The notes beneath the pieces are model-generated. The model did not search any database and was not told the origin of the DNA. It was given only the letters and a program-made list of their open reading frames with translations. A DNA stretch of 58,922 bases from Bryobacteraceae bacterium (GTDB taxonomy: Bacteria; Acidobacteriota; Terriglobia; Bryobacterales; Bryobacteraceae): the NCBI GenBank assembly GCA_049802535.1, contig JBARMQ010000462.1, positions 1-58,922 on the forward strand. Direction: 5' to 3'. Position 1 is the stretch's first letter. The number at the start of each line of letters is the position of its first letter. This document shows, one piece after another, positions 19,888 to 57,950 of this stretch. The translations under genes were made by a program, and so were the position numbers.

Positions 19888-22356
19888 GTGACTTTGAAGG
19901 CCGAAGAATCTCGCAACACATGGATCTCGCGTTGGATGAGCGACGCCTCGCAGGACTTTCGTTACAGTGTCCGTACTCTTGGGCGCGACTTGGGGTTCAC
20001 CACCTTTGTTGTGCTCATTATCGCGCTGGGAATCGGCGCAAGCTCTACGGTCTTTAGTGTCTTGGATACGATTCTTATCCGGCCGCTCCCGTTTAAAGAT
20101 CCGGGAAGCCTGGTCTGGATCGCAAACGAAGTCAAGGAAGAAGGCGATTTGTCCGGCCAAACTGTTCAAGTGGGCCGGATGCAAGATCTGCGAAAGCGCA
20201 ATCGATCTTTCTCCGATATCGCAGGCTACTTCGCCTTCTACGGTGTCGGCGACAGCGTGCTCACGACTAGTGGTGAGCCCGAACGGTTAAGCACGGTCCC
20301 GGTCTCGCAAAACTTCTTCTCTTTGCTCGAGGTCCAACCATTGCTGGGCCGATATTTCAGCGCGGACGAATGCAAATTCAACGGAGCGGCCGCCGTGATG
20401 ATGAGCTATGGGCTGTGGGTGCGGCGTTTCGCTTCCGACCCCGGCATCATCGGTAAAATCGTTCGGATCAACGATCAAGACGTCACCGTGGTCGGAGTAT
20501 TGCCGCGCTCGTTTGATTTCGGGTCCATCTTTGCTCCCGGCTCGCATATCGACCTCTACTCTGCGTTCCCGCTAACGGCGGAGACGGACCGCTGGGGTAA
20601 TACTTTGGCGCTGGTAGGACGGCTGAAGCACGGCGTCTCCATCCAACAGGCGCAGGCGGAGGTGACTGTATTGGGCGATCATATTTCAGATGAGCATCCG
20701 AGGCAAAACTCGATCCATCCCAAACTCACATTTCTGCCGCAACACGTGATTGGAAAGCTGCGGCCCGCGCTCTTCACACTTGCTTGCGCGGTTGGCGTCG
20801 TCATGCTGATTGTGTGCGCCAATCTTTCAAATTTGCTGCTCGCCCGCACGGCCACCCGGCAACAGGAGATGGCGGTTCGTACGGCCATTGGCGCTGGACG
20901 GTATCGTCTCATTCGCCAATTGTTGACGGAAAGTCTTGTACTCACGTCCGGTGGCGCGGTGCTCGGTCTCGTATTGGCCGTTCTGGCAACTCGCGGGATC
21001 GCGCACCTCAGCGCGTTTAACATCCCGTTGCTGTCTAGCGTTCGTTTGAACCTTGTTGCGCTGGGCTTCACGTTGGCCGTGGCAGTCGCCGCCGGTTTGG
21101 TGTTAGGAATGGCGCCGGCCCTGCAGGTCTCAGCTCTTCCTTTGAGTGCTTCGCTTGCGCAACGCGGCGGCAGCGAATCGCGAGGCCAAATGTGGATGCG
21201 CGGCACACTGGTGGTCACGGAGATTGCCCTCGCCTGTATCCTGCTGGTGGGCGCCGGTCTGCTGATTCGCAGCTTTCTGCATGTGCTGGACGTGAATATG
21301 GGGTTTCGCCCCGAAAGCGCCGCAACCGTGCGCGTCGATCCGGATCGGCGCAACGCAAAACAAGCGCAGACCAACGCGTACTTCGATGAAGTTCTCCGTC
21401 GAGTTGGTTCTCTATCCGGAGTTCAGGCCGCCGGTATGACCGATGCATTACCGCTCGGGCACAATCGCACGTGGGGATCGCCGGCCAAGGGCCAAGTCTA
21501 CGTGAAACCGGAGGATTTCCCGGAAGCCTTCGTCCGCATCATCAGCGATGGCTACATCAAAGCCATGGGAATGAGCTTGCGAAAAGGCCGCGACTTCACC
21601 CAGCGGGATGTTCCTTCAAGTACTCAAGTGATCATTGTCAACCAAACCATGGCACGCAATCTCTGGCCCGGTCGAGATCCAATCGGTCAGGTGATCCAAG
21701 GCGATTGCGGCGCGGATCGCCAAGTCGTGGGTGTCGTCGCCGACGTCCGGCACATCGTGCTGGAGAAAGGCTCCGGCAACGAAATGTACATTCCGATTCG
21801 GCAGTGTCAGGATTACGGCAACGTCGACCTGGTGGTGCGCTCAACGCTGCCGTTCCCTGTCTTGGCTTCGAATGTAGAGGGCGCGCTCCGGCCCATTCTG
21901 CCTGAGCTGCCAAGAGGCAGTGTCCACCCCTTGACGGACCTTGTCGACAGAGCCGTCTCCCCGCGCCGATTTATCGTCCTCTTGCTGGGAGGATTCGCGG
22001 GCTTCGCGCTGCTGCTTGCCTCGCTCGGAATCTACGGAGTCATTTCCTATTCGGTGAACCGCAGGACGCAGGAAATTGGCATCCGCATGGCGCTCGGCGC
22101 TTCGACGGGAACCGTACAAAGCCGCATCATGACGCAAACGCTCGGGCTGGCGGCGCTCGGAATGCTGCTCGGCGCCGCCGCTTCACTTGCTTTATCCCGC
22201 GGCTTAAGCGGTCTTCTCTACGGAGTGACCTATGGCGATCCGTTTACCTTCTTCGCGACTTCGGCAATATTGCTCGCTGTCGCTGTCTTGGCCGGCTACT
22301 TGCCGGCCCGGAGGGCCTCGCGAATCGATCCGATGATCGCGCTACGAGTCAGTTAG
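19888..22356 (+). CDS. MacB/FtsX-type ABC permease, ADOP family
   Basis: Motifs QDFRYSVRTLGRDLGFTTFVVLIIALGIGASST and MLIVCANLSNLLLAR, a duplicated FtsX domain, and C-terminal YLPARRASRIDPMIALR. An alternative ATG start lies at 19936. Confidence 0.9.
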   Translation: MTLKAEESRNTWISRWMSDASQDFRYSVRTLGRDLGFTTFVVLIIALGIGASSTVFSVLDTILIRPLPFKDPGSLVWIANEVKEEGDLSGQTVQVGRMQDLRKRNRSFSDIAGYFAFYGVGDSVLTTSGEPERLSTVPVSQNFFSLLEVQPLLGRYFSADECKFNGAAAVMMSYGLWVRRFASDPGIIGKIVRINDQDVTVVGVLPRSFDFGSIFAPGSHIDLYSAFPLTAETDRWGNTLALVGRLKHGVSIQQAQAEVTVLGDHISDEHPRQNSIHPKLTFLPQHVIGKLRPALFTLACAVGVVMLIVCANLSNLLLARTATRQQEMAVRTAIGAGRYRLIRQLLTESLVLTSGGAVLGLVLAVLATRGIAHLSAFNIPLLSSVRLNLVALGFTLAVAVAAGLVLGMAPALQVSALPLSASLAQRGGSESRGQMWMRGTLVVTEIALACILLVGAGLLIRSFLHVLDVNMGFRPESAATVRVDPDRRNAKQAQTNAYFDEVLRRVGSLSGVQAAGMTDALPLGHNRTWGSPAKGQVYVKPEDFPEAFVRIISDGYIKAMGMSLRKGRDFTQRDVPSSTQVIIVNQTMARNLWPGRDPIGQVIQGDCGADRQVVGVVADVRHIVLEKGSGNEMYIPIRQCQDYGNVDLVVRSTLPFPVLASNVEGALRPILPELPRGSVHPLTDLVDRAVSPRRFIVLLLGGFAGFALLLASLGIYGVISYSVNRRTQEIGIRMALGASTGTVQSRIMTQTLGLAALGMLLGAAASLALSRGLSGLLYGVTYGDPFTFFATSAILLAVAVLAGYLPARRASRIDPMIALRVS

Positions 22357-25932: not shown

Positions 25933-28482
25933 ATGCAAAATTTTCTCGCCGATCTTCGGTACGCTGCGCGACAGTTTCGCCTCTCCCCCATTTTCAGCAT
26001 CACCGCTATTTTGACGCTCGCCCTGGGCATCGGCGGAACCACAGCGATCTTCTCTTTGATTCACACCATCATGTTGCGGTCGCTTCCGGTGGTCGATCCC
26101 GCCAGCCTTTACCGCATCGGGGACGGAACGGACTGCTGCGTCGAAGGCGGTCCCCAGGATCGTTGGGGCATGTTTACCTACCCGTTCTTCCAAGTCATCC
26201 AGGCCAACACCCCCGAGTTTGAACTGTTGACCGCATTTCAGGCCTCCGGAACCCAAATGAGCGTTCGCCGTCAGAGGACAGAACACATTGGCCGCACGGT
26301 CCGCTCCGAATTCGTCACCGGCAATTACTTCGAGACATTTGGAATTCGCGCCTTCGCCGGTCATGTCCTCTCGCCCTCCGATGACCACGCTTCCGCCCCG
26401 CCTGTTGCCGTCCTCAGCTACCACGCCTGGAAAGCCTTCTACGCTTCTGACCCATCTATCATTGGGTCCACCTTGATCGTTCAAGACCATCCCGTCACTG
26501 TAATCGGCATTTCGCCGCCCGGCTTCTATGGGGAGACGCTCCGCAGCGATCCGCCTGATCTGTGGATCCCGCTGCAACAGGAGCCGCTGATCGATGGTCA
26601 GAACTCGTTGCTTCATCAATCGATTTCTGCATGGCTCCGCGTCATCGGCCGCGCGCGTCCGGGTGCGAACATATCCTCCGTCGGCCCGCGACTCACCGCA
26701 ATCCTGCGCCGCTGGTTGAAAGATAATGCCGGCTTCCCGTCTGCTTGGATACCGGAAATCGTCCGGTTGCTGCCGCGCCAGAACATCACCGTTGTCCCAG
26801 CCGGTTCGGGTGTGGAGGCGATGCAAGAAGATTACGGCCGCAGCCTTGAAATTCTGCTGGCGGTCTGCGGTCTGGTCCTCTTGATTGCTTGTGCCAACGT
26901 TGCCAATCTCATGCTGGCGCGCGCTATGGCTCGCCGCAGTCAAACGTCCCTACGGATCGCCATCGGCGCCTCGCGCGGCCGTCTCATCAGCCAGTCACTC
27001 ACCGAAAGCCTATTCCTCTCGATTGCCGGATTTTTGGCTGGCCTTATCGTGGCTGACGCCGTGGGCAGGCTGCTGCTGAATCTGGTCTTTCACAGTGACC
27101 ATCTGCTTGCTCTCGATACCACGCCGTCCCTGCCGGTCCTCGCTTTTTCTCTCGGCATCGCCCTCTTTACGGCTTTGCTCTTTGGCGCCGCTCCGGCGTG
27201 GTTTGCCACTCGCACCGATCCGATTGAAGCTCTTCGCGGCGTCAATCGTAGCACTCGCGATCGCTCATCCTTTTCTCGCCAGGCTCTCCTTGTGCTGCAA
27301 GCGACGCTCTCGGTTGTTCTGGTCGCGGGGGCTGCCATGCTGACTCGCAGCCTGTTTAACCTCCAAGATCAAAAATTCGGATTTGAGATGGCCCACCGCA
27401 TCGAAGTCAATCTCAATTCGCCGCCAGCGACTTATTCCGTCGACCGGCTGAACGCCCTCTACCAGAACCTGGAGCGCAGCCTATTACAGATTCCCGGTGT
27501 CCAACAAGCCGGCCTTGCCATGTACAATCCGCTCACAGATAATTGGGGCGAACAGATCGTCGTCGACGGCCATCCCACGCCAACCTTTACCGACAATTCC
27601 AATTCGTCGTGGGACCGCGTCAGCGTCGGCTACTTCAAGACTCTCGGTCAGCGTTTGCTGCGCGGCCGGGCATTCTCGGAATCGGATATCACCTCCAGCA
27701 CGCCTGTTGCGGTTGTCAATGAAACCTTTGTGCATCAGTTCTTCCCGCACGAAGATCCCATCGGGAAGCGCTTCGGCATGGACCTTCCGGAAAATGCGCG
27801 TACGTTTCAAGTTGTCGGCGTCGTCGGCGACGCAAAATACACTGAGCCGCAGCGCCCGGCTCGTCCCATGTTTTTCGTGCCTCTCCAGCAGAGCGTCCGC
27901 TACAGCAATCCCATAATGGACAGATTGGAGGGCTGGTCGCACTATATCCGCGGCGTGCTGATTGTTTCGACCCTCGATACCGGCGTTTTGGAGCCCATGC
28001 TCAAAAAGACACTTGCCGATACTGATCCGAATCTCACGATCATTGACGTTCGAACGCTCAAGCAACAGGTCGATCTCGATTTCGACCAACAGCGCGCAGT
28101 CGCCAGTCTCGCGGCACTCTTTGGCGGCATCGCCCTTCTGCTGGCCGCCATCGGACTCTACGGCGTCACCGCCTATGCCGTCGCGCAACGCACCAGTGAG
28201 ATCGGCGTTCGAATGGCACTTGGCGCGGACCGCTCCATCGTTGTCAATTTAGTTCTGAAATCTGCTTTCCGCAAGGTGCTTCTCGGCCTTTTGCTCGGAA
28301 TTCCGCTCTCCATCGGCGCTGGCCATCTCATCTCTTCCCAGCTTTACAACGTCGCCGGCTGGGATCCCATCGCTCTCGGCGCCGCCGTCGGCTCTCTCGC
28401 TATAGCCGCGTTCGTGGCCGCACTTATTCCCGCGGCTCGCGCTTCGTCCATCGACCCGATCCGCGCCCTTCGCATTGAATGA
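25933..28482 (+). CDS. MacB/FtsX-type ABC permease, ADOP family
   Basis: Motifs MQNFLADLRYAARQFRLSPIFSITAILTLALGIGGTTAIFS and LLIACANVANLMLAR, with C-terminal LIPAARASSIDPIRALR. Confidence 0.92.
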   Translation: MQNFLADLRYAARQFRLSPIFSITAILTLALGIGGTTAIFSLIHTIMLRSLPVVDPASLYRIGDGTDCCVEGGPQDRWGMFTYPFFQVIQANTPEFELLTAFQASGTQMSVRRQRTEHIGRTVRSEFVTGNYFETFGIRAFAGHVLSPSDDHASAPPVAVLSYHAWKAFYASDPSIIGSTLIVQDHPVTVIGISPPGFYGETLRSDPPDLWIPLQQEPLIDGQNSLLHQSISAWLRVIGRARPGANISSVGPRLTAILRRWLKDNAGFPSAWIPEIVRLLPRQNITVVPAGSGVEAMQEDYGRSLEILLAVCGLVLLIACANVANLMLARAMARRSQTSLRIAIGASRGRLISQSLTESLFLSIAGFLAGLIVADAVGRLLLNLVFHSDHLLALDTTPSLPVLAFSLGIALFTALLFGAAPAWFATRTDPIEALRGVNRSTRDRSSFSRQALLVLQATLSVVLVAGAAMLTRSLFNLQDQKFGFEMAHRIEVNLNSPPATYSVDRLNALYQNLERSLLQIPGVQQAGLAMYNPLTDNWGEQIVVDGHPTPTFTDNSNSSWDRVSVGYFKTLGQRLLRGRAFSESDITSSTPVAVVNETFVHQFFPHEDPIGKRFGMDLPENARTFQVVGVVGDAKYTEPQRPARPMFFVPLQQSVRYSNPIMDRLEGWSHYIRGVLIVSTLDTGVLEPMLKKTLADTDPNLTIIDVRTLKQQVDLDFDQQRAVASLAALFGGIALLLAAIGLYGVTAYAVAQRTSEIGVRMALGADRSIVVNLVLKSAFRKVLLGLLLGIPLSIGAGHLISSQLYNVAGWDPIALGAAVGSLAIAAFVAALIPAARASSIDPIRALRIE

Positions 28483-28493
28483 CGTCGTTCCGG

Positions 28494-30941
28494 CTACTCG
28501 TGCCGCAGCGAAACCGCCGGATCGACGCGCGCCGCCCGCATCGATGGCAGCCCGGCCGCCAGCAGCGCCGCGAACAACAGAACCACTGACGCTACGAGGA
28601 AAGCCGCCGGGTCTTGCGGAGAGACATTGAATAGCAATCCATGGATCAGCCGCGCCAGGAACGCCGCAGAAACTAACCCGGCCACGATTCCCACGGCCGT
28701 CCACTGAAGAGCAAAACGTAACACATGCACAGCGACGCGAGACGGACTTGCGCCCATCGCCATCCGAACGCCGATCTCGCGCGTTTGCTGTGCAACCAGG
28801 AACGAAACCACGCCGTATAGGCCCACCGCCGCCAGCACCAGTCCAAAGCCGGCAAAACTGCCGAGTAGCGCTGCCACGAAGCGCGGCTGCGTCGTCAGAT
28901 CATTGATACGCATTGTGAGTGTTTGAATACTGATCGGCATCCTGGGATCAAGCGACGCGAATTCAGCGCGGACCATCCGGCTCACACTTTCGAGCGGCAG
29001 AGACGTTCGCAGGATTGCCACGGCGGACCGCCCCAAATTATCTGCATTCCAGGTGCGCAAATGATAGTATTCAGGCGCCGCATCCGAAGCCAATCCTCTG
29101 TTCTTAACATCACGCGCCACCCCCATAATCGGCGACCAAACCGTATGCGCACCATCCAAGCCCCTCAGTGCAAGCTGATGACCTATTGGATTCTCCCGGC
29201 CAAACAGTTTTCGAGCCAAGCTTGCGCTCAATATGATTGCCGATTGAGTCGAATTGCGATCCTCTTCACGGAACGGCCGTCCTGCAATTATCCGAATTCG
29301 TAAAGCGTCGAAATATCCCGGGGAAACATATCGAAACGCAACGATGCCGCCTTGCTCCGGCAGCGGAGGACGCCCGGCAATGCGCATATTTGAGAACGGC
29401 CGCCCATGCATGACTCCGCTCGGCGGAACTGTGTCGCTGAGGCCCGAAGTGGCAATGCCAGGAATAGCAGCCAGCCGGGTTTCGAGTGCTCGATAGAACG
29501 CATTCTGCGCCGCCGCTTGCGGATAACGGTGGCTATCCAAGAGGAAAGAAACGGTGATGACGCGTTGCGTCTGCATGCCCAATTGCTGGCTTTCGAGCTT
29601 CAGCAAACTGCGCACGAATAAAGATGAGCCGGTTAATAGCACCAACGAGATGGCAATTTGGAAGGCAACCAGCGCTTGACGAAATCGGCCGTGTCCAAGC
29701 CCCAGCACGTGCCAACCGGCCAGTTCTTCGGCTCGTGGCCGCCGCAAAGCCGCAGCCGCTCCGAACAAGACGACTGCCAACAACGATGTCACAAACGCGA
29801 AAACGAGAACCCGTAAGTCAATCCCCACTTGGTTGAGACGCAGGAACGCGCTGGGAGACATTTTGACCAGGGCTTTCAACAAACCCCACGCCAGTAGCAC
29901 GCCGCTAGCACCGCCCGCCACGCCGAGGAACAAGCTTTCACTTAGAGACAGCTGAATTAATCGGAGACGCGCCGCGCCCATTGCGGCACGCATGGCCAAT
30001 TCCCGCCCGCGCTGATTGCTCCGGGCAAGTACGAGATTAGCGACGTTACTGCACGCGATCAAGAGCAGCGCCGCCACCGTCCCCAGTAGCAGCCACGACG
30101 CGAGCCGCTCATCATGTATTTGGCGATCACGCAAGCCCCGCATCATGAAGTGCACTTCACCGCGCAGCATCGGCGGCACATCGGCCAAGCTCGATACATA
30201 CAGCGGTTGCATCTGCTCTCGCGCCTGCTCCAAAGTAAGCTTGTCCTTAAGACGTGCGAAGCATCGCAAGAATGCGCCGGTCTCGTCGCGGAGTTGCGCC
30301 GTCTGATCAAGCTGTTCCGTCATCAAAACATCCGCTTCCGCCAACTGCGGCATTTCGAAGCTTGCCGGCAGCACGCCAATTACCCGCGTCGGCTGATCCT
30401 CAATTAGCAACGTCTTTTGAAGCGCATTGGGATTTCCCGCAAATCGCGCCTGCCACAGTGCATGGCTGATCAGCGCAACTCGTGGAGCATTCGGCCGGTC
30501 TTCATTTTCCGTAAAATTGCGCCCAATTATAGGAGAAATGCCAAGCGTGGGAAGAAAATCCGCCTCAACATAAACGCAGTGGATACGAACGGGATTTTGG
30601 TCTCCCAGATCGCACTCCGCGGCCGGCAGCATCGATGTCAGCGATTTAAATGGAGTCGTCCGCCTCCGCCAATTGAAATATGTGCGGCCCATCATAAATT
30701 CGTTGGCATCAATCGGCCCGCTAATTCCGACGGAAACCAGACGATCCGCACGTGGATATGGCAAACTGCGGAACAGCAACCGGTCAACCATGCTAAAAAC
30801 CGCAGTCGAAGAACCGATGCTGATCGCGAGCGTCACTATGACCAGCAAGGCAAACAGTGGACTGCGCCGCAGAGATCGCAACGCGTAGCGGCCATCCTGG
30901 CCTACCGCGTCAAACCAAGCCAAAAGTGGCCGCTTCGCCAT
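28494..30941 (-). CDS. MacB/FtsX-type ABC permease, ADOP family
   Basis: Motifs QDGRYALRSLRRSPLFALLVIVTLAISIGSSTAVFS and LLIACSNVANLVLAR, with C-terminal GLPSMRAARVDPAVSLR. It is convergent with the previous paralog, with an 11-bp gap. Confidence 0.92.
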   Translation of the reverse strand: MAKRPLLAWFDAVGQDGRYALRSLRRSPLFALLVIVTLAISIGSSTAVFSMVDRLLFRSLPYPRADRLVSVGISGPIDANEFMMGRTYFNWRRRTTPFKSLTSMLPAAECDLGDQNPVRIHCVYVEADFLPTLGISPIIGRNFTENEDRPNAPRVALISHALWQARFAGNPNALQKTLLIEDQPTRVIGVLPASFEMPQLAEADVLMTEQLDQTAQLRDETGAFLRCFARLKDKLTLEQAREQMQPLYVSSLADVPPMLRGEVHFMMRGLRDRQIHDERLASWLLLGTVAALLLIACSNVANLVLARSNQRGRELAMRAAMGAARLRLIQLSLSESLFLGVAGGASGVLLAWGLLKALVKMSPSAFLRLNQVGIDLRVLVFAFVTSLLAVVLFGAAAALRRPRAEELAGWHVLGLGHGRFRQALVAFQIAISLVLLTGSSLFVRSLLKLESQQLGMQTQRVITVSFLLDSHRYPQAAAQNAFYRALETRLAAIPGIATSGLSDTVPPSGVMHGRPFSNMRIAGRPPLPEQGGIVAFRYVSPGYFDALRIRIIAGRPFREEDRNSTQSAIILSASLARKLFGRENPIGHQLALRGLDGAHTVWSPIMGVARDVKNRGLASDAAPEYYHLRTWNADNLGRSAVAILRTSLPLESVSRMVRAEFASLDPRMPISIQTLTMRINDLTTQPRFVAALLGSFAGFGLVLAAVGLYGVVSFLVAQQTREIGVRMAMGASPSRVAVHVLRFALQWTAVGIVAGLVSAAFLARLIHGLLFNVSPQDPAAFLVASVVLLFAALLAAGLPSMRAARVDPAVSLRHE
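29931..29971. repeat. Copy A of a 41-nt direct repeat, internal to the ADOP permease CDS
   Basis: caagctttcacttagagacagctgaattaatcggagacgcg. On the minus strand it encodes ..RLRLIQLSLSESL.. of the permease. Confidence 0.9.
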
Positions 30942-33151: not shown

Positions 33152-33385
33152 CTATTCCCACTCTTCCTCGACCGATTCGCCCTCCTCTTCCTCTTCGTCG
33201 TCTTCATCGTCGTCGAAATCGAGGTCTTCATCTTCGTCGGCCTCCTCCTCGGAGTTCAATTCCACCGGGTGCAAGCTGGCGACGGTCAGGGCCGCGCCGC
33301 ACTCATCGCAGGAAAGTACATCACCTTCATCCAATTCTTCTTCTTCGACATCTATGGTCGCATCACACTTGGGGCAAGAAACCAT
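33152..33385 (-). CDS. LysW-like zinc-ribbon protein with an extended acidic tail (putative amino-group carrier-like protein)
   Basis: MVSCPKCDATIDVEEEELDEGDVLSCDECGAALTVASLHPVELNSEEE... ends in EEEWE. Compare Thermus LysW as I recall it: MVGTCPECGAELRLENPELGELVVCEDCGAELEVVGLDPLRLEPAPEEAEDWGE. Confidence 0.6.
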   Translation of the reverse strand: MVSCPKCDATIDVEEEELDEGDVLSCDECGAALTVASLHPVELNSEEEADEDEDLDFDDDEDDEEEEEGESVEEEWE

Positions 33386-33507: not shown

Positions 33508-33885
33508 TTATCGGTGCGCTAGAGAAGCAGTTTCCTTCATTTGTTCAAAGTATCGCGCGAGCTCCGCAGGTAACACTGTCACTAAGGTCTTCTCCATGTC
33601 TTCGGAGGTCTCTATCATGTACCGCAGATGTGCCGCTGCAATGCGCATACACAGCGAATCGGTCAGTCTGCGGTCGCTATTCGCGGTAAGCGTCAGAAGT
33701 TCGTGGCGCGGAAGCGCGATCACTTTTTCCTCGGTCGAATATCCTTCGGAAGAAACAAAAAACTTCACGTCGATGGTATCGGCGTGGCGTATGGAAATGG
33801 CCGTCTGCAGCCAGCGAAATTGCACCGTCCACATGCGTCCAAAAGGGTCTGGACCAGCTTCAAAAAGGCGGCTTTGCTCGCTCAT
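33508..33885 (-). CDS. Hypothetical 125-aa protein downstream of folE
   Basis: The internal ATG at 33885 (MSEQSRLFEAGPDPFGRMWTVQFRW...) avoids the overlap with folE that the longer track ORF would create. I recognise no motif in it. Confidence 0.45.
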   Translation of the reverse strand: MSEQSRLFEAGPDPFGRMWTVQFRWLQTAISIRHADTIDVKFFVSSEGYSTEEKVIALPRHELLTLTANSDRRLTDSLCMRIAAAHLRYMIETSEDMEKTLVTVLPAELARYFEQMKETASLAHR

Positions 33886-33944: not shown

Positions 33945-34562
33945 CTACATGGAATTCAGCCGTTGGCCGACGAGTGACAACAGCTCGTTCCGCGTCTCCT
34001 GTTGGGTCCGGAAAGCGCCCAACATGGCACTCGTAATTGCGCCCGAGTGTTGCTTCTCGACGCCGCGCATCATCATGCAAAAATGCCGCGCTTCGCAAAT
34101 CACTCCCACTCCGCGCGGCTTAACCAGGTCCTGAATCGTCTCCGCCACCTGCTGCGTCAGCCGTTCCTGAATTTGGAGCCGCCTGGCGAATACATCCACG
34201 ATGCGAGGAATTTTGCTTAGGCCGATGACCTTCTCATCCGGCAGATAAGCCACGTGCATCCGGCCGAAAAACGGCAGCATGTGGTGCTCGCAAAGGCTAA
34301 AAAACTCGATGTCCCGCACAATTACCATCTCGTCGTACTTCACCGGAAATAGCGCACCATTGACAATCTGCCGGGCGTCCTGCTGGTATCCGCTGGTCAA
34401 AAAGCGCAGCGCCTTGTCTGCTCTTTCAGGCGTATTCTTCAAGCCCTCGCGCGATCCATCCTCGCCCAAAGCAAGCAACACTTCCCGCAGGTTATCCGCA
34501 ATCGAGATTTTCTTCGCCTTCGACTGAATGTCGACCACCCTGCTATTCTTCTTCGTCATCAA
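33945..34562 (-). CDS. folE: GTP cyclohydrolase I (type IA)
   Basis: Motifs [51 protein letters not shown] and [12 protein letters not shown]. Confidence 0.95.
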
Positions 34563-34571
34563 AACTCTCTT

Positions 34572-35048
34572 TCAAACGCCAGCCAAAACTCTCTCGCGCA
34601 TCGAACCTTGTTTTCGGCTTACCACGCCGGGAAATACCTCGAAGCCGTTTCGATCTGTCTCCTGCAGGCTTACCCGGCTCAGCCGGACGTTCGAATTCGG
34701 CACGTAATCGCTCCAGTGCTCTCCCAGCAAATCGGCGATATAGAGAAGCACATTCTCCGTCGTAGGCGCCAAAACGCGAAATGCCGGGACATCTATATTG
34801 ATGTAGCGATAGGCAAAAAGCCGCAACGCCTGCTCCGTCACCAGCCGATCCAGATGCCCGGTGGGTACTATCAAGCCGCTCTCGGGGTCGATCTCGCCCG
34901 TTGCCGCCACTTCTAAGATGTAATCGTGGCCGTGCCCATAGGGGTTATTGCATTTTCCATAAAGCTCACGGTTCTGAGCATCGGTTAAATGACTTGCATG
35001 CAGCCGATGCGATGCCGGGAACCGGTAGCGCCGCGTCACACTAATCAT
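34572..35048 (-). CDS. 6-pyruvoyl-tetrahydropterin / 6-carboxy-tetrahydropterin synthase family protein (paralog 1: Cys present, Asp-His absent)
   Basis: FPASHRLH...YGKCNNPYGHGHDY...LQETD. The start overlaps the stop of paralog 2 (ATGA). Confidence 0.85.
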   Translation of the reverse strand: MISVTRRYRFPASHRLHASHLTDAQNRELYGKCNNPYGHGHDYILEVAATGEIDPESGLIVPTGHLDRLVTEQALRLFAYRYINIDVPAFRVLAPTTENVLLYIADLLGEHWSDYVPNSNVRLSRVSLQETDRNGFEVFPGVVSRKQGSMRERVLAGV

Positions 35049-35467
35049 GCTGCCTGCCGGTCTCTAACGACATCTACAAACAAATCTGCCGTCTCAAACA
35101 GCCGGACCCGAGCGAGCTGGGTTCCAGTGTGGTGCAACCGCAAATCGAGTCTTCGCCAGATCTCTTGAGCTATATTTGGCGCCGTCGGCACCACCCGGTC
35201 AAAGGGCTTCACCTCGTAATTTAAGAACCGATGATCCATCGGCGTCACTACTTCTTCTTCCAGCATCTCCTTCAGATCCTTAAGATCGATGACCATCCCG
35301 GTCAGAGGATCCGGATCGCCTTCCACGGTTACTTCTACAATGAAATTGTGGCCGTGGCCGGAAGGATTCGCGTCGTCCGCAAATAACGCCCGATTCTGTT
35401 CCTCGTTAAGGGATGGCAGACGGCAGACGTGCGAGGCGGAGAACTCGGCTTTTCGGGTGACGAACAT
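35045..35467 (-). CDS. 6-pyruvoyl-tetrahydropterin / 6-carboxy-tetrahydropterin synthase family protein (paralog 2: Cys absent, Asp-His present)
   Basis: FSASHVCR...FADDANPSGHGHNF...PMDHRFLN...LFETAD. Confidence 0.85.
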   Translation of the reverse strand: MFVTRKAEFSASHVCRLPSLNEEQNRALFADDANPSGHGHNFIVEVTVEGDPDPLTGMVIDLKDLKEMLEEEVVTPMDHRFLNYEVKPFDRVVPTAPNIAQEIWRRLDLRLHHTGTQLARVRLFETADLFVDVVRDRQAA

Positions 35468-35563
35468 TCCTACTTTTGGATGTGCGGGCAGATTCGTTAG
35501 ATACTGTTAAATTATCTCGTAACCGGAATTCTTACATGGGCTCCCCTGGCCCGCTTTAGTAAT

Positions 35564-51419: not shown

Positions 51420-52253
51420 TCAGTTAGAGGCCCGGATGCGGGCTTCTATGTAGCCCGAAGGCTCATCTGTCGGCACAAAAATCTGATTCGGGTTGTCTAA
51501 GCCGAATCGGGATAGATCAAACAGCAGCCGGTGCTTATTGGGCATAACTAAGTGGATCTCTGCGAGCACCGCATGCGTGGCTAGCGCCTGTTCCGCCATT
51601 GCATACAGAGTCTCTTGCACCGACCGGCTGGTGTGCGCCGCAAAGCTGTCAAGCAGCGTTTGTCTAACTGCCGTGTGTGTCGCGTTAAAGTCAATCGCCC
51701 CTGACCGATATGTCCAGTGCGCGTCTAAGACCGTCCCCAACAATCGATCATGGGTCTCGGGAAGCGTGGTGTACTCATCCTTTATGTAATCGGCGAAGCC
51801 GGAGTTACCGGTTTTCAGAATTTCTAAGTCGCTTATGCCAGATGTGTAGACTTCCCGTTCCCGATCGGCGTCAACGGCGGCGGAACGGGTCTCCTCCCCA
51901 TTCTTCAGGAAGGCCGTAGCGTAGGACCCGATCCGGCCCCACAACGTTTGCTCAATTTCAACCTTTACCTTGCGAAGCGGTGGCACATGCGAAAGAAAAT
52001 GCCGCGCCAAGTCGCCGGCGAACGCCTCGATGCTATCGATGCGGCGTTTCCGGGCTAGCGCATAAACCGTATTTTTCATCGTGTCGGTTGGCAAAATGCT
52101 GCTGTTATCGCCAGCCGTATACGACTTCTCGAAGCCGCCTTCAAATAGAATGCGAACTGAGATCTCCAAAACCTCGTGTGCGCCGTTATCCCGCAATACC
52201 TGTGTTAGTCGAACGCGCGTCTTACCGTACGTGTCGAACGTTAAATTGGCCAT
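51420..52253 (-). CDS. uox: Urate oxidase (cofactor-independent uricase)
   Basis: YGKTRVRLTQVLRDNGAHEVLEISV...NSSILPTDTMKNTVYALAR, a two T-fold repeat architecture. Confidence 0.9.
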   Translation of the reverse strand: MANLTFDTYGKTRVRLTQVLRDNGAHEVLEISVRILFEGGFEKSYTAGDNSSILPTDTMKNTVYALARKRRIDSIEAFAGDLARHFLSHVPPLRKVKVEIEQTLWGRIGSYATAFLKNGEETRSAAVDADREREVYTSGISDLEILKTGNSGFADYIKDEYTTLPETHDRLLGTVLDAHWTYRSGAIDFNATHTAVRQTLLDSFAAHTSRSVQETLYAMAEQALATHAVLAEIHLVMPNKHRLLFDLSRFGLDNPNQIFVPTDEPSGYIEARIRASN

Positions 52254-53056: not shown

Positions 53057-53906
53057 CGCGCCCCAGCAGAAATTCATCCAGCAAGTTCAACGCCACTTGC
53101 AACCGGTACTCGCTCGTCGACCGGATGTCGTCGATCGGCTGAATTTCGCTACGCAGCGTCGCTCGGGCCCGCTCCAGCGTCTGAGGATTTAGCATCTGCC
53201 CGCACAGAGCCTCCTCGGTTTTCAAGCATCTCAGCGGTACCGGTGCAACACTGCCCAGCCCTATTCGCACGTCCAGAATGCGGCCGTCCTTCATGTTCGC
53301 TGCAGCCGCCATCCATACTTTCGCAATGGCCTGAGCCTTACGCGCGCCCACTTTGCGGCTGTATTGGCGTGTCCAACGTTGCCGTGGCAGGCGGATGCTC
53401 AAAATCATTTCGTCCGGCGTCATTTCCATGCGTTTATAACCGCTATGGAAATCTTTCATCGCAACTCGCCGTCGTCCGCGTTGTGATGCAAGCTCCAATT
53501 CCGCGTCGTATACCAGCAGCGCAGGCGCCGAATCTGCCGCCGGCGAAGCATTCGCAATGTTGCCGCCGAGCGTACCGCGATTTTGATTCGCGATACTGCC
53601 CGTCCAACTCGCCGCCGTCACAAGCAATGGAAACGCCCCGCACAAAATAGCGCTCCTTCGAATCTGCGTGTACGTAGCGGTGGCGCCAATGCGTAGTTCG
53701 TTCTCGCTTTCTTCGATCGCCCGCAACTCCGAAATGCTTCTGATTCCGACAAGCCTCCGAAAGCTTAACTTACCGGCGTTAAACAGCACCATGAGGTCCG
53801 TTCCGCCCGCAATCGGCCGCCATCCTTCGCCATTCGACAGCAGATTCAGCGCCGTCGGCAGGTCCCTCGCCGCAACCATTGCATACTCACCGGCATGTGA
53901 CCTCAC
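53043..53906 (-). CDS. Xanthine dehydrogenase family, FAD-binding (medium) subunit
   Basis: Motifs WRPIAGGTDLMV, ANQNRGTLGGNIANASPAADS and a CO-dehydrogenase flavoprotein C-terminal pattern (DIRSTSEYR). Confidence 0.88.
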   Translation of the reverse strand: MRSHAGEYAMVAARDLPTALNLLSNGEGWRPIAGGTDLMVLFNAGKLSFRRLVGIRSISELRAIEESENELRIGATATYTQIRRSAILCGAFPLLVTAASWTGSIANQNRGTLGGNIANASPAADSAPALLVYDAELELASQRGRRRVAMKDFHSGYKRMEMTPDEMILSIRLPRQRWTRQYSRKVGARKAQAIAKVWMAAAANMKDGRILDVRIGLGSVAPVPLRCLKTEEALCGQMLNPQTLERARATLRSEIQPIDDIRSTSEYRLQVALNLLDEFLLGRDDLA

Positions 53907-54373
53907 ACGCCCGGCTCGCTCGCTCTCTCGACTGCCTCAAAAATTCTGATATAGCCCGTACAGCGGCACAGATTGCCCGACAATCCTTCGCGAATCTCCT
54001 CACGTGCCGGCTTCGGATTGTTTGACAGCAACGCGATCGTTGCCATAATCATGCCCGGGGTACAAATGCCGCACTGCGCTCCGCCCGCCTCTGCGAACGC
54101 TTGCTGAACAGGATGCAAGCTGCCCTCGCTGGCCACGGATTCAATGGTGCAAATCAGCGATCCTCCAGCATCCAGCACCGGGACCAGGCAGCTATTCACC
54201 AATTCGCCGTTGATCAACACTGAGCAAGCACCGCACTCGCCTTCGCCGCACCCTTCTTTCGTCCCCGTCAGCCCCAGGTCTTCGCGCAGTACATCCAGCA
54301 AACGCTTCATGGGAGGCGTCTCGACTTCATGCCGCACGCCATTGACGGTCAGAGAAATGTGCTGAGTCGTCAT
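53903..54373 (-). CDS. Xanthine dehydrogenase family, [2Fe-2S] (small) subunit
   Basis: Motifs GCGEGECGACSVLINGELVNSCLV, QCGICTPGMIM and NLCRCTGY. Confidence 0.92.
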   Translation of the reverse strand: MTTQHISLTVNGVRHEVETPPMKRLLDVLREDLGLTGTKEGCGEGECGACSVLINGELVNSCLVPVLDAGGSLICTIESVASEGSLHPVQQAFAEAGGAQCGICTPGMIMATIALLSNNPKPAREEIREGLSGNLCRCTGYIRIFEAVERASEPGV

Positions 54374-56601
54374 GCGGCTGCACGTCCGCTGTGCAAGGCG
54401 CTCAATATGTGTTCCGGCATTACCGGAGCATGGTCGAACGGAACGCCCAACGCATTCTCAATCGCATTGAGAACCGCCGGCACAGGACCATCCATGGGTA
54501 GTTCCCCAATCCCCTTCGCCCCAGTACCGCTATGCGCGTACGGTTGTTCTTCAAAGAACACGCGAATCGGAGGAATGTCGCAGGTCGTCGGTATTACATA
54601 ATTTGTCATCTGGCTATTCGCCATCACGCCATTGCGCCAAACCACGTCCTCGTATAGCGCAAGCCCAATGCCCTGCGCCACGCCGCCTTCAATTTGGCCG
54701 GCCGCGAGCGTCGGATTTAAAACGCGTCCTACTTCCTGCAGCGCCACAAAATCCTCCACCTGCACTTCGCCGGTTACCGTATCCACCGCAACCTGCGCCA
54801 CATAAACGGCCCACGAATAAGCCCCATATGCGTCACCCTGGTACTTGGTGTCGTCCCAGAATATGTTCGGCGGCTCTTTGTATTGCACGCTAGCGCGCAA
54901 CGCACCGCACTGGTCTATATACTTTTCGGCCGCTGCTGCGAACCCGGCCTCTGAGTACTCATCCGCCAAGAGATGGTTATCGAACAAAATTTGCTTCAGC
55001 TTCACCGCGGCCGATTGCACCAGACCGCCAATCACCATTGCCGTGCGCGATGCTACCGTCGGGCCGCTGTTAGGCACACACGCCGTATCGGGCCGCGGCA
55101 CGTTCACGCGGGCATACCCGATACCCAGCGTTTCCGCCGCGATCTGCGCCAGAATTGTGTTCGTACCCTGACCCATCTCCGTCATCGAACTGAGAATGGT
55201 CACGCTGCCGTCGCGCTCGGCCTCAATCGTCACGATCGATTGCAAATATCGCTCGCCCGATCCCGTAAAGCCTGCTCCGTGAAAAAATGTGGCAAAGCCC
55301 ATGCCTCTTTTCACCGGTCGGGATGGATTCTGCGCGGAGAACTCCTTCCGCTTCTCGTCATAGCCTGCAAGATCAAGCGCGCGGCGCTGCAACGCCGGCA
55401 TATCGATCGGTTCAGTTACCAACTGGCCGGTAGAGGTGGTATCGCCAGGTCGAAGTAAATTCCGTGCGCGAAACTCTTCCGGACTCAGTCCCACTGCCCG
55501 TGCCACCTTATTCATGTGACGCTCTAATGCGAAGAGGCTTTGTGGCGCACCGAATCCCCGAAAAGCTCCGTGTGGCGGCGTATTTGTCGCGACCGCGGTG
55601 CTGGTCACACGCACGTTATCGCAGCGATAAGGACCGGCGGCATGAATCGTGCCGCGTGAAAGCACCACCGGCGTCAACGTGCAATACGCGCCGCCATCGA
55701 TGACAAATTCAATCTCCATTGCAAGCAATCGCCCATCCGCTGAAACCGCAGTCCGATGCCGCGTGCGGGACGGATGCCGCTTCGTCGTCGCCGCCATGTC
55801 CTCCTCGCGGTCGTAAATCAGCTTCACCGGTTTGCCTGATTTCCATGCCAGCAGCGCCGCATGCCCCGCAATCATCGACGGATATTCTTCCTTGCCGCCA
55901 AAAGCGCCGCCGGTTTCTTGCTGGATCACGCGAACCTTTTCCGGCGGCATGTTGAACAGCGGCGCCAGCGCTTTTTGCACGTAAAACGGGCATTGCATCG
56001 ATCCCCAAACCGTCACGCCATCCGCATTCGCTGTCGCGACCATCCCATTCGGCTCAATGTAGAGCTGTTCCTGCGCGCCGGTTGAATACTCGCCTTCGAC
56101 GATGAAAGCCGCCTCGCTCCACACTGAGTCGACATCGCCCTTGTTGATCTGGAATCGCTTGAAAATGTTCTCCTGCCCCCAGACCACGGTTTGGCCCGAG
56201 AGCGCATCGTCCATGTTGAGTACTGCGGGAAGCGGCTCATACTCCACTCGCACGCACGCGCGCGCTTTGTGCACCAAGTCTTCATCCGCATGCGCCAGCA
56301 GCACAATGGGCTCCTGCGAGTGATTGACGTACTCGGCCGCCAAGAAAGGTTGATCCTCCACTAATAGCGTGACAAGGTTTTTGCCCGGAATATCGGCCGC
56401 CGTCACAATGGTGAATTCATCCCAAGGAATGCCTGCGAGGAACTCTATGCCGGTAATTCGGCCGCGCGGTATCTCGCTACGGATCGTCAATCCATGCAGC
56501 ATCCTGGGAAGCTTCATGTCATCGACATACTGCGCGCTTCCTGTGACCTTCGACCGCACTTCCTTCCGAAGAACGGATGTGCCCACCACACTCGACCGCA
56601 T
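54370..56601 (-). CDS. Xanthine dehydrogenase family, molybdopterin-binding (large) subunit
   Basis: The ATG at 56601 (MRSSVVGTSVLRKEVRSKVTGSAQYVDDM) follows GGTGGAG. Motifs GGAFGGKE, AFRGFGAPQ and GIGELP. The longer track ORF overlaps the 3' end of allantoinase. Confidence 0.9.
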   Translation of the reverse strand: MRSSVVGTSVLRKEVRSKVTGSAQYVDDMKLPRMLHGLTIRSEIPRGRITGIEFLAGIPWDEFTIVTAADIPGKNLVTLLVEDQPFLAAEYVNHSQEPIVLLAHADEDLVHKARACVRVEYEPLPAVLNMDDALSGQTVVWGQENIFKRFQINKGDVDSVWSEAAFIVEGEYSTGAQEQLYIEPNGMVATANADGVTVWGSMQCPFYVQKALAPLFNMPPEKVRVIQQETGGAFGGKEEYPSMIAGHAALLAWKSGKPVKLIYDREEDMAATTKRHPSRTRHRTAVSADGRLLAMEIEFVIDGGAYCTLTPVVLSRGTIHAAGPYRCDNVRVTSTAVATNTPPHGAFRGFGAPQSLFALERHMNKVARAVGLSPEEFRARNLLRPGDTTSTGQLVTEPIDMPALQRRALDLAGYDEKRKEFSAQNPSRPVKRGMGFATFFHGAGFTGSGERYLQSIVTIEAERDGSVTILSSMTEMGQGTNTILAQIAAETLGIGYARVNVPRPDTACVPNSGPTVASRTAMVIGGLVQSAAVKLKQILFDNHLLADEYSEAGFAAAAEKYIDQCGALRASVQYKEPPNIFWDDTKYQGDAYGAYSWAVYVAQVAVDTVTGEVQVEDFVALQEVGRVLNPTLAAGQIEGGVAQGIGLALYEDVVWRNGVMANSQMTNYVIPTTCDIPPIRVFFEEQPYAHSGTGAKGIGELPMDGPVPAVLNAIENALGVPFDHAPVMPEHILSALHSGRAAA

Positions 56602-56609
56602 ATTTAAAA

Positions 56610-57950
56610 TTACTCCACCCGCCGGCACTCTCGCCCGCCCGGCAGTTCCGCCCAAAGCCCGGCGGAATAAACAATTTCCCCACGCAAGTAGGAGGCCTTC
56701 ACCGCTCCCGACAATTTTCGTCCAAGATATGGTGAAATGGCATGGCGAAAATGCAGCCGGTCTTCTGTAACCGTGAACTCGGCGTCTGGATCGAAGATCA
56801 CGAAATCGGCGTCGTAACCAGCCGCTATGCTGCCTTTCCGGCGCTGTACACCCGCCAGCGCAGCTGGATGCTCGCACATCCATCGGGCAATGTCATCTAA
56901 GCCGAAGTCTCTCCGCCGTGCTGCCGTCCAAGTTGCCGCCAAGCTAAGCGACAGCGATGCTATGCCGCCCCACGCGCCGAGAAAATCGCCTTGTTCGCGC
57001 CGCTTCATCGCCGGCGGACAAGGCGAGTGATCCGTCACCACCATGTCGATCACTTCTGTCCGCAATGCCCGCCATAGTAATTCCTGATTCGCCGCATCGC
57101 GCACCGGCGGCGCGCACTTGTACTCCGTCGCACCCGCCGGAATGTCTTCGGCGACGAACGACAAGTAATGAGGGCACGTCTCCACCGTAATCGGCAGCCC
57201 TTCGGCCCGTGCCTTCTTTAGATCGGCGACCGCCTCCGCAGCCGACAAGTGAACCACATGGATCGGATGACGATATTCTCTGCAAAGTTCGATCAGAAAC
57301 CGTATCGCCTCCGTCTCCGCCTTAGCCGGACGCGTCCCCAAGTATGTTGCGTACAATCGGCTGTCCGCTTGTGCGTCCGCCGCCAATAAATATTCAGGCA
57401 ACTCGGCATGCACCAGCAGCGGCAGCCCTGTTTCGACCAGGTGTGGCATCCCTGATCGCAAGTCATTGGGAGAAAGCGCCGTGAATTCTTCCGTTCCCGT
57501 TGGTGACAAAAAACACTTGAATCCGCACACGCCCGCTTCTGCCAGCGCCGCAAGTTCATGCTCGTTTCCAGGAACGACACCGCCCCAAAACGCATAGTCA
57601 ACCGCGCATTGCCCCGCCGCAGCTTCCCGCTTCTGCTCCAAAGCCGTGACATCGGTCGTCGACGGAATCGAATTCAGCGGCATATCCACAACACAAGTAA
57701 TTCCGCCCGCCGCCGCTGCGCGTGTCCCAGTGGCAAAACCTTCCCACTCGGTCCGCCCCGGTTCATTAATATGAACGTGTGTATCGATCAGGCCCGGCAG
57801 TAAAGCGTCCTCCCCGATATCGAGGATTTCGCCCGCAACCGGCGGCGGCGAACTGACGACAGACACAATGCGGCCATGTTCAAACGTGACCCAAGCCGCT
57901 CGCGTTCCCTCCGGCGTCACCACCCGATTCGAATGAATACTTCGCCGCAT
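56610..57950 (-). CDS. allB: Allantoinase (cyclic amidohydrolase)
   Basis: LLPGLIDTHVHINEPGRTEWEGFATGTRAAAAGGITCVVDMPLNS, FKCFL, HAE and VTDHSP, in a purine-catabolism context. Confidence 0.88.
   Translation of the reverse strand: MRRSIHSNRVVTPEGTRAAWVTFEHGRIVSVVSSPPPVAGEILDIGEDALLPGLIDTHVHINEPGRTEWEGFATGTRAAAAGGITCVVDMPLNSIPSTTDVTALEQKREAAAGQCAVDYAFWGGVVPGNEHELAALAEAGVCGFKCFLSPTGTEEFTALSPNDLRSGMPHLVETGLPLLVHAELPEYLLAADAQADSRLYATYLGTRPAKAETEAIRFLIELCREYRHPIHVVHLSAAEAVADLKKARAEGLPITVETCPHYLSFVAEDIPAGATEYKCAPPVRDAANQELLWRALRTEVIDMVVTDHSPCPPAMKRREQGDFLGAWGGIASLSLSLAATWTAARRRDFGLDDIARWMCEHPAALAGVQRRKGSIAAGYDADFVIFDPDAEFTVTEDRLHFRHAISPYLGRKLSGAVKASYLRGEIVYSAGLWAELPGGRECRRVE

Follow-up and report, generated by a model that had tools for sequence, protein, structure and literature searches.

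A translationally coupled pair of PTPS-family genes in Terriglobia with complementary halves of the catalytic triad: a candidate hetero-oligomeric pterin synthase

Background

The DNA considered here (the window) is the 58,922-nt contig JBARMQ010000462.1 from a Bryobacteraceae bacterium (assembly GCA_049802535.1). Two neighboring genes in this window, here called P1 and P2, encode proteins of the 6-pyruvoyl-tetrahydropterin synthase (PTPS)/QueD family, and each protein appears to carry only one half of the catalytic triad of that family. Members of the PTPS/QueD family are textbook homo-oligomers whose active site lies between subunits. The zinc ion, held by three His residues, the catalytic Cys and the pterin-anchoring Glu are provided by one subunit, and the His that activates the Cys, together with an Asp, is contributed by a subunit of the other ring. 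Nar et al. in 1994 reportedly assigned Cys42 and Glu133 to subunit A and His89 to subunit B of the other trimer. The expression "intersubunit catalytic triad" comes from the title of Burgisser et al. (1995), as quoted in the papers that cite it. A mutagenesis study of 1995 reportedly dealt with how far PTPS activity falls without Asp88 or His89. In QueD and QueD2, the triad His is written with a double prime, which distinguishes it from residues of the adjacent subunit in the same ring, and the zinc site is described as spanning both rings (PMC9894224).

Genes at the locus

Four genes follow one another on the minus strand in the order P2, P1, folE and orfX. An earlier sequence-only reading of this DNA had placed the two PTPS-family genes correctly by position; their strand is minus, however, so that its "paralog 2" (P2) is the upstream gene and its "paralog 1" (P1) the downstream one. 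The ATGA that it described as shared by the two genes was read directly from the DNA as an overlap of the P2 stop with the P1 start (Table 1). The ATG of folE lies 12 nt past the P1 stop codon, and orfX starts 59 nt downstream of folE. Upstream of P2 lie a thioredoxin-fold gene and an FAD-linked oxidase gene, both with the reverse orientation.

The product of folE, 7,8-dihydroneopterin triphosphate, is the substrate of PTPS. The arrangement suggests a single operon of P2, P1 and folE for the synthesis of a pterin from GTP, with orfX as only a possible member. The 96 nt between P2 and the divergently transcribed thioredoxin-fold gene (35468..35563) should contain the promoter of the operon. Neither a sigma-70-like site nor an Rfam element was found there, the promoter and terminator scan gave matches no more numerous than in shuffled sequence, and Rfam had no match anywhere in the window.

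Catalytic residues of P1 and P2

Residues were called from HMMER alignments to rat PTPS (1B66) and human PTPS (3I2B), which were ungapped at the motifs, and the codons were checked directly. Cys42, Asp88-His89, Glu107, Glu133, Lys41, Asn43 and Leu25 are cited in rat PTPS numbering. Both proteins score well above the PF01242 gathering score of 22.4 bits (Table 1). The top solved relatives of each are the human and rat enzymes, with E values from 1e-22 to 3e-29 and 36-42% identity to mammalian PTPS.

In P1, His14, Cys33, His39, His41 and Glu130 correspond to rat His23, Cys42, His48, His50 and Glu133, and Ala79-Tyr80 occupies the position of Asp88-His89. P1 also carries Glu98 and a C-terminal extension of about 20 aa. 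P2 contains the three zinc histidines (His13, His38 and His40), Asp78-His79 and Glu125, with Asp32 at the position of Cys42. The zinc-binding histidines and the pterin-anchoring Glu are present in both proteins, as the sequence-only reading had proposed. Its statement that P1 keeps the Cys and is without the Asp-His pair was also borne out, and the profile alignment did not restore the missing Cys of P2 or the missing Asp-His of P1.

The PTPS-II signature CxxxxxHGH is found in P1 only, as CNNPYGHGH, and is kept in 153 of 154 P1 orthologues; in P2 it is broken by Asp32. The Asp-His dyad, which PTPS-II carries in the same polypeptide as the signature, is replaced in P1 by Ala79-Tyr80 and is found solely in P2. 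Judged by these residues, P1 and P2 each lack one defining catalytic element, so that neither qualifies by itself as a canonical PTPS-II. Against the QueD equivalog TIGR03367, the two window proteins score 36.8 and 62.8 bits, below its cut-off of 89.25 bits. The QueD motif CxxxHGH is absent from both, since P1 has Cx5HGH and P2 has no such motif. The PTPS-III motif ExxHGH is also absent, a Pro standing three positions before HGH in P1 (NPYGHGH) and in P2 (NPSGHGH).

Table 1. Genes, overlap and catalytic codons of the P2/P1 locus in the window
Feature	Position	Strand	Evidence
P2, PTPS-family subunit, 140 aa	35045..35467	-	PF01242 102.7 bits; rat PTPS 1B66 E=3e-29
P1, PTPS-II-type subunit, 158 aa	34572..35048	-	PF01242 76.4 bits; human PTPS 3I2B E=9e-26
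ATGA overlap of P2 stop and P1 start (translational coupling)	35045..35048	-	read directly
folE, GTP cyclohydrolase I	33945..34559	-	PF01227 246 bits; TIGR00063 249 bits
orfX, conserved 125-aa protein	33508..33885	-	gene position after folE in relatives
P2 Asp32 codon, at the position of rat catalytic Cys42	35372..35374	-	HMMER alignment and codon check
P2 Cys15 codon, at the position of rat Leu25	35423..35425	-	orthologue alignment
P2 Asp78-His79 codons (rat Asp88-His89), proposed trans-acting half of the triad	35231..35236	-	codon check
P1 Cys33 codon (rat Cys42), catalytic base	34950..34952	-	codon check
P1 Ala79-Tyr80 codons, at the position of Asp88-His89	34809..34814	-	HMMER alignment and codon check

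Adjacency of the two genes in related genomes

The closest relatives of P1 and P2 belong to the Acidobacteriota, class Terriglobia (Acidobacteriaceae and Bryobacteraceae). A scan of genomes, one per species, with the P1 alignment pattern matched at least 599 stretches, at least 589 of which encode a relative, and the best 80 loci, all from Terriglobia, were examined. P2 lies immediately upstream of P1 in every one of them. In the reciprocal scan, in which the P2 alignment pattern was used on metagenome contigs, P1 adjoins P2 in 79 of the 80 loci examined, the exception being a contig end. The two independent scans combined thus give same-strand neighbors in 159 of 160 loci, and apart from that contig end neither gene was found without the other. 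The survey of co-occurrence that the sequence-only reading had called for therefore found the paralogs never apart.

The folE gene follows P1 in 79/80 genome loci, again with one contig end as the exception, and in 65/80 metagenome loci, the others of which are short contigs. Of the 80 genome loci, 73 have a P2 stop that overlaps the P1 start: the overlap is 4 nt (NTGA) in 58, 1 nt (TAATG) in 11 and apparently 13 nt in 4. Most of the remaining pairs are 3-11 nt apart. The pair is common in soil Acidobacteria, the genome stretches noted above coming from many species of Terriglobia, and Terriglobia are among the most abundant soil bacteria.

Opposite conservation of the two halves of the triad

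Paired residues were counted in 154 P2/P1 loci from genomes and metagenomes. Cys42 is present in 153 of the P1 proteins and in none of the P2 proteins; Asp88-His89 is present in all 154 P2 proteins and in 80 of the P1 proteins. Among the 120 best matches of each protein, Cys42 occurs in 89/89 single-module P1 matches and in 0/120 P2 matches. Asp88-His89 occurs in 120/120 of these P2 matches, and Asp88 in a single one of the 89 single-module P1 matches. Because the asymmetry holds across both families, in the best matches as well as in the pairs, it is, on these alignments, not the result of chance.

The dyad position of the 154 P1 orthologues reads DH in 80 cases, xH in 36 and otherwise in 38, and the replacements are diverse (AH, EH, AY, AN, AS, RN, SG and others). 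In P2, the Cys42-equivalent position holds A in 74, E in 36, N in 22, G in 15, D in 6 and S in 1 of the orthologues, and by this count it is unconstrained. Since the position varies to this extent, the Asp32 of the window is no conserved alternative base, and the idea that it substitutes for the Cys was rejected. The sequence-only reading was right that P2 has Asp in place of the Cys and keeps Asp-His, but Asp as a conserved replacement does not stand. PTPS-III-like chemistry was likewise rejected for P2, which has no ExxHGH motif.

A quick neighbor-joining distance tree was built from the concatenated pair with the trait columns masked. On this tree, loss of Asp-His in P1 takes about 19 parsimony changes and loss in P2 takes none. 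These opposite patterns, with the Cys absent from P2 throughout, suggest that the P2 Cys was lost once and early, and that the Asp-His of P1, by then redundant, was lost repeatedly afterwards. The loss in P1 is, on this tree, a derived state, and the strictly complementary state is characteristic of the clade of the window. The proposal of the sequence-only reading that neither homomer would have a complete site holds strictly within that clade, but not for the 80 pairs in which P1 retains the dyad. In the 154 pairs, no P1 column resembles an internal replacement when Asp-His is lost. The sole systematic shift in P1 that accompanies the loss is at position 130, from Arg to His.

Other pocket residues of P2 have also changed. 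Lys41 and Asn43, both present in rat PTPS, never vary in P1, but in P2 these positions are variable or hold another residue. In the 74 pairs whose P1 has no dyad, 24 of the P2 proteins are without Glu107, against none in the 80 pairs that keep the dyad (Fisher p = 2e-9 without phylogenetic correction; on the tree, about 7 events). At the position of rat Thr106-Glu107, the P2 of the window reads Ala-Pro (Pro97). To judge by these residues, the pocket of P2 itself is eroding.

Two features of P2 that the sequence-only reading did not mention are its overall conservation and an additional Cys. In 154/154 pairs P2 is the better conserved of the two, with a mean identity to the window protein of 64.6% for P2 and 51.0% for P1, and because of this P2 is, on sequence grounds, no decaying gene. 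The additional residue, Cys15, lies two residues past the first zinc histidine, His13, in the motif S-A-S-H-V-C-R. It is present in 120/120 best matches and in 153/154 paired orthologues, and an equivalent is uncommon among the modules of other PTPS clusters. Cys15 persists without variation in the clade in which P2 loses Glu107 and further residues of its pocket, and for this reason a structural role is favored, though speculatively. It might, for example, be a fourth ligand that closes the zinc site, which we presume from reasoning about the pairing of strand 1 with strand 2. A His3Cys zinc site closed in this way would explain why P2 has kept its zinc ligands.

Fused relatives with two or three modules

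When 1.84 billion cluster representatives were searched exhaustively with P2 by phmmer, 4150 relatives were found, and the modules of the top 150 representatives were classified by their catalytic residues. Many of the best relatives are PTPS chains of two modules (about 270-300 aa) or three modules (about 400-420 aa). In 23 of the 150, the first module is without Cys42 and has Asp-His, and the last module has Cys42 and is without Asp-His. These chains repeat the P2-then-P1 partition in the same N-to-C order within one polypeptide. In 14 more, the first module lacks the Cys and the last is complete, and in 11 both modules are complete. Examples are P0268, P0278 and P0300 with two modules and P0272 and P0293 with three. 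Chains of this kind are widespread in other phyla; the members with a named source come from Fimbriimonadia, Nitrospirota and a cyanobacterium, and their annotations are generic throughout. Such fusions constitute Rosetta-stone evidence that both module types work in one oligomer.

Single modules without zinc ligands, without Cys or without Asp-His were also observed in the fused chains, in complementary combinations. Among the bimodular matches to P1, the C-modules fit the P1 profile better than that of P2 in 31/31 cases, and the HMM scores are ambiguous for 30 of the 31 N-modules. A hint from a neighbor-joining tree that the N-modules belong to the P2 lineage was rejected on account of these ambiguous scores. 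The sole clear fusion of a P2-type with a P1-type module by HMM scores is P0023 (L162:260-1090), whose P2-like half has Cys42 and is without Cys25. This half may represent the ancestral state. The fusion may also be a frameshift artefact, because its contig carries fragmented housekeeping genes, among them PNPase in three pieces.

An AlphaFold 2 (AF2) model of one fused protein was of high confidence (pLDDT 94, pTM 0.89). In it, strand 4 of module 1 leads directly into strand 1 of module 2, and the modules are predicted to lie side by side in one sheet. Compared with the Protein Data Bank (PDB), single modules of this model matched human and rat PTPS with a TM score of 0.92. The whole chain matched only uricase and GTP cyclohydrolase IB, at a TM score of about 0.45, with no two-module match of high similarity. 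The gene of one bimodular relative is followed by a gene for a short-chain dehydrogenase; the short-chain dehydrogenases are the family that includes sepiapterin reductase.

Proposed enzyme and alternative explanations

On the strength of these residue patterns, P1 and P2 probably form a hetero-oligomeric enzyme of PTPS-II type, in which the Asp-His of P2 acts in trans on the zinc/Cys site of P1 and the reciprocal site is dead. P1 and P2 would co-assemble with each P1 facing a P2 across the interface of the two rings, and Asp78-His79 of P2 would complete the P1 site (Zn/Cys33/Glu130) and activate Cys33. The reciprocal site would contain the zinc of P2 and no Cys, would receive Ala-Tyr from P1, and would have lost Glu107 (Pro97). 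Such a complex would have only half as many active sites as a homomer, and P1 or P2 by itself would not be fully active. The assembly could consist of stacked P1 and P2 homotrimers, or of alternating P2-P1 rings as the fusions suggest.

The product is probably 6-pyruvoyl-tetrahydropterin, to judge by the Cx5HGH of P1, its identity to the mammalian enzymes and the linkage to folE. Published work gives Cx5HGH as the signature of PTPS-II (PMC5041015) and places PTPS-II clusters next to folE (PMC5445326). No reductase gene was found in the window or at the corresponding locus of a relative (L081).

Several points weigh against a heteromeric enzyme. In the 80 pairs that keep the P1 dyad, P1 is a complete PTPS-II that could work alone, and the heteromer is therefore not forced by the sequences across the whole family. 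The conservation of P2, its zinc ligands, its Glu133 and its invariant Cys would seem to exceed what a donor of Asp-His needs, so that P2 may also act in its own right. Nor does the window hold the pathway that would follow the predicted product.

If P2 does have its own function, the enzyme could have two kinds of sites. P1-centred sites, built from Cys33 and the Asp-His of P2, would make 6-pyruvoyl-tetrahydropterin, and P2-centred zinc/Cys15 sites would perform a second reaction or bind a pterin effector. This arrangement seems unlikely; if true, it would be a bifunctional or self-regulating heteromeric T-fold machine, with a pterin undescribed in Acidobacteria. The same features of P2 (near-invariant Cys15, invariant Asp-His and Glu133, conservation above that of P1) would also agree with two separate, co-expressed homo-oligomers, P1 being a PTPS-II without dyad and P2 using the relocated Cys15 with its own Asp78-His79 from the opposite ring. 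P2 could then catalyze a different step, for example on the product of P1, and a P2-centred site could bind pterin through Glu107 in the 80 pairs that keep it along with the P1 dyad. Separate homomers are nevertheless considered quite unlikely. Cys15 outlasts the decay of the P2 pocket, which a structural role fits better than a catalytic one, and P2 has lost the Lys41 and Asn43 that never vary in P1 and rat PTPS. Moreover, a homomeric P1 would not be expected to lose its dyad about 19 times without compensation, and the fused chains with the complementary split place both module types in one oligomer.

The opposite constraint on the triad residues, invariant in P2 and dispensable in P1, is also left unexplained if the genes encode a catalytic and a regulatory subunit without catalysis in trans, and so is the repetition of the exact partition in the fused relatives. 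In such a pair, P1 would be the enzyme and P2 a stabilizer, a zinc buffer or retainer, or a sensor for pterin feedback, its Asp-His being retained for structural reasons. The very strong conservation of P2, and its retention of the zinc site, the extra Cys and the Glu133 anchor despite having no catalytic Cys, would suit that role. A precedent exists in QueD2, in which an extra Cys near the zinc site tunes metal retention (PMC9894224). On balance, the regulatory explanation is regarded as improbable.

A different doubt concerns the product and not the architecture. The same heteromer might act as QueD, making 6-carboxy-tetrahydropterin for queuosine, or as a FolB bypass, making 6-hydroxymethyl-dihydropterin for folate. 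Members of COG0720 are often mis-assigned, and single residues can switch the product (PMC5041015; PMC2229834). In addition, folE serves all three pathways, the cluster has no sepiapterin reductase, and relatives carry the NCBI name "6-carboxytetrahydropterin synthase". P1, however, has Cx5HGH and neither the Cx3HGH of QueD nor the ExxHGH of PTPS-III, both proteins fall below the QueD equivalog cut-off, and apart from folE no que or fol genes occur in the window or at locus L081. Another product has some chance of being correct, but a rather small one.

Relation to known T-fold systems

The closest family is that of the homohexameric PTPS-II enzymes (1B66, 3I2B; EC 4.2.3.12), and the closest functional analogue appears to be bimodular QueF. 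With PTPS-II the pair shares the fold, the Pfam family, the zinc His triad, the Glu anchor, the Cx5HGH of P1 and the link to folE. PTPS-II, however, is the product of one gene and has six identical sites from identical subunits, whereas P1 and P2 are two genes with Cys and Asp-His on separate polypeptides, so that at most half of the sites can be complete. In bimodular QueF (YqcD or Vibrio cholerae type), duplicated T-fold modules divide the active-site elements and rejoin them at an inter-module site, and the N-module is without the catalytic Cys (PMC5372742). P1 and P2 share this partition of catalytic elements, but not the single polypeptide of that split T-fold type. Bimodular QueF is one chain of another T-fold family that performs nitrile reduction, while P1 and P2 are separate coupled genes of the PTPS family.

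The fused PTPS proteins described above resemble the pair in that Asp-His stands on a first module without the Cys, and the Cys on a last module without the dyad, and in having C-modules nearest to P1. They differ in being single polypeptides, in mostly lacking the Cys15 of P2, and in occurring only in other taxa. QueD and QueD2 share the Pfam family and a triad His from the other ring, and QueD2 also has an extra conserved Cys near the zinc, with a different ring size. Both, however, have Cx3HGH or Cx4HGH, are homomeric and stand among queuosine genes. Plasmodium PTPS and PTPS-III are also without the canonical Cys, as P2 is. In those enzymes, a conserved Glu in ExxHGH serves as the base and the product is changed, whereas the position in P2 is unconserved and without ExxHGH.

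No description of a heteromeric, tandem or multi-module PTPS was found in the literature searched. P2 might correspond to PTPS-V, reportedly one of the COG0720 subfamilies of Phillips et al. (2012). The fold, the chemistry and the principle of a split T-fold site are established, and the two-gene split of PTPS and the series of degenerate sites are, as far as is known, new. If the proposed enzyme is real, a PTPS made by two genes with half a site each would be the first heteromeric member found in the PTPS/QueD family. Its relatives preserve intermediates, from both copies complete (in some fused forms) through the loss of the P2 Cys to the repeated loss of Asp-His in P1. They would provide a natural test case for the passage from a homomer to an obligate heteromer through complementary degenerative changes. 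The P1 and P2 genes are currently annotated as "6-carboxytetrahydropterin synthase" or as generic PTPS, which is probably wrong or incomplete and hides a pterin pathway.

Other features of the window

The orfX gene follows folE in 82 of the 122 related loci with sufficient room. Among the 120 homologues listed of 1953 found, identity is 65-94%, and all are named "hypothetical". Searches of Pfam, of PDB sequences and with Foldseek gave no match for the protein; its AF2 model is confident, with a pLDDT of 85 and a pTM of 0.81. The gene may be a fourth member of the pterin operon. Downstream of it, at 33152..33385 on the minus strand, lies the gene of an acidic-tailed, LysW-like carrier protein of zinc-ribbon type (PF21344), and the LysW-like neighbor is also present in the 6.58-Mb genome contig of the relative (L081).

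A uricase-like open reading frame (ORF), which encodes a bimodular T-fold protein, is located at 51420..52253 (minus strand). Beside it, at 53903..57950 on the same strand, are genes resembling xanthine dehydrogenase subunits and an allantoinase or amidohydrolase, the identification being by eye from N-terminal sequences only. Together these genes probably serve purine catabolism as a cluster that has no relation to the pterin operon. Elsewhere in the window, three ORFs that are paralogues of one another, similar at the N-terminus and about 820-850 aa long, are found at 19888..22356 (plus), 25933..28482 (plus) and 28494..30941 (minus). The last of these, the sole one of the three scanned, matches a MacB-like periplasmic core and an FtsX permease domain.

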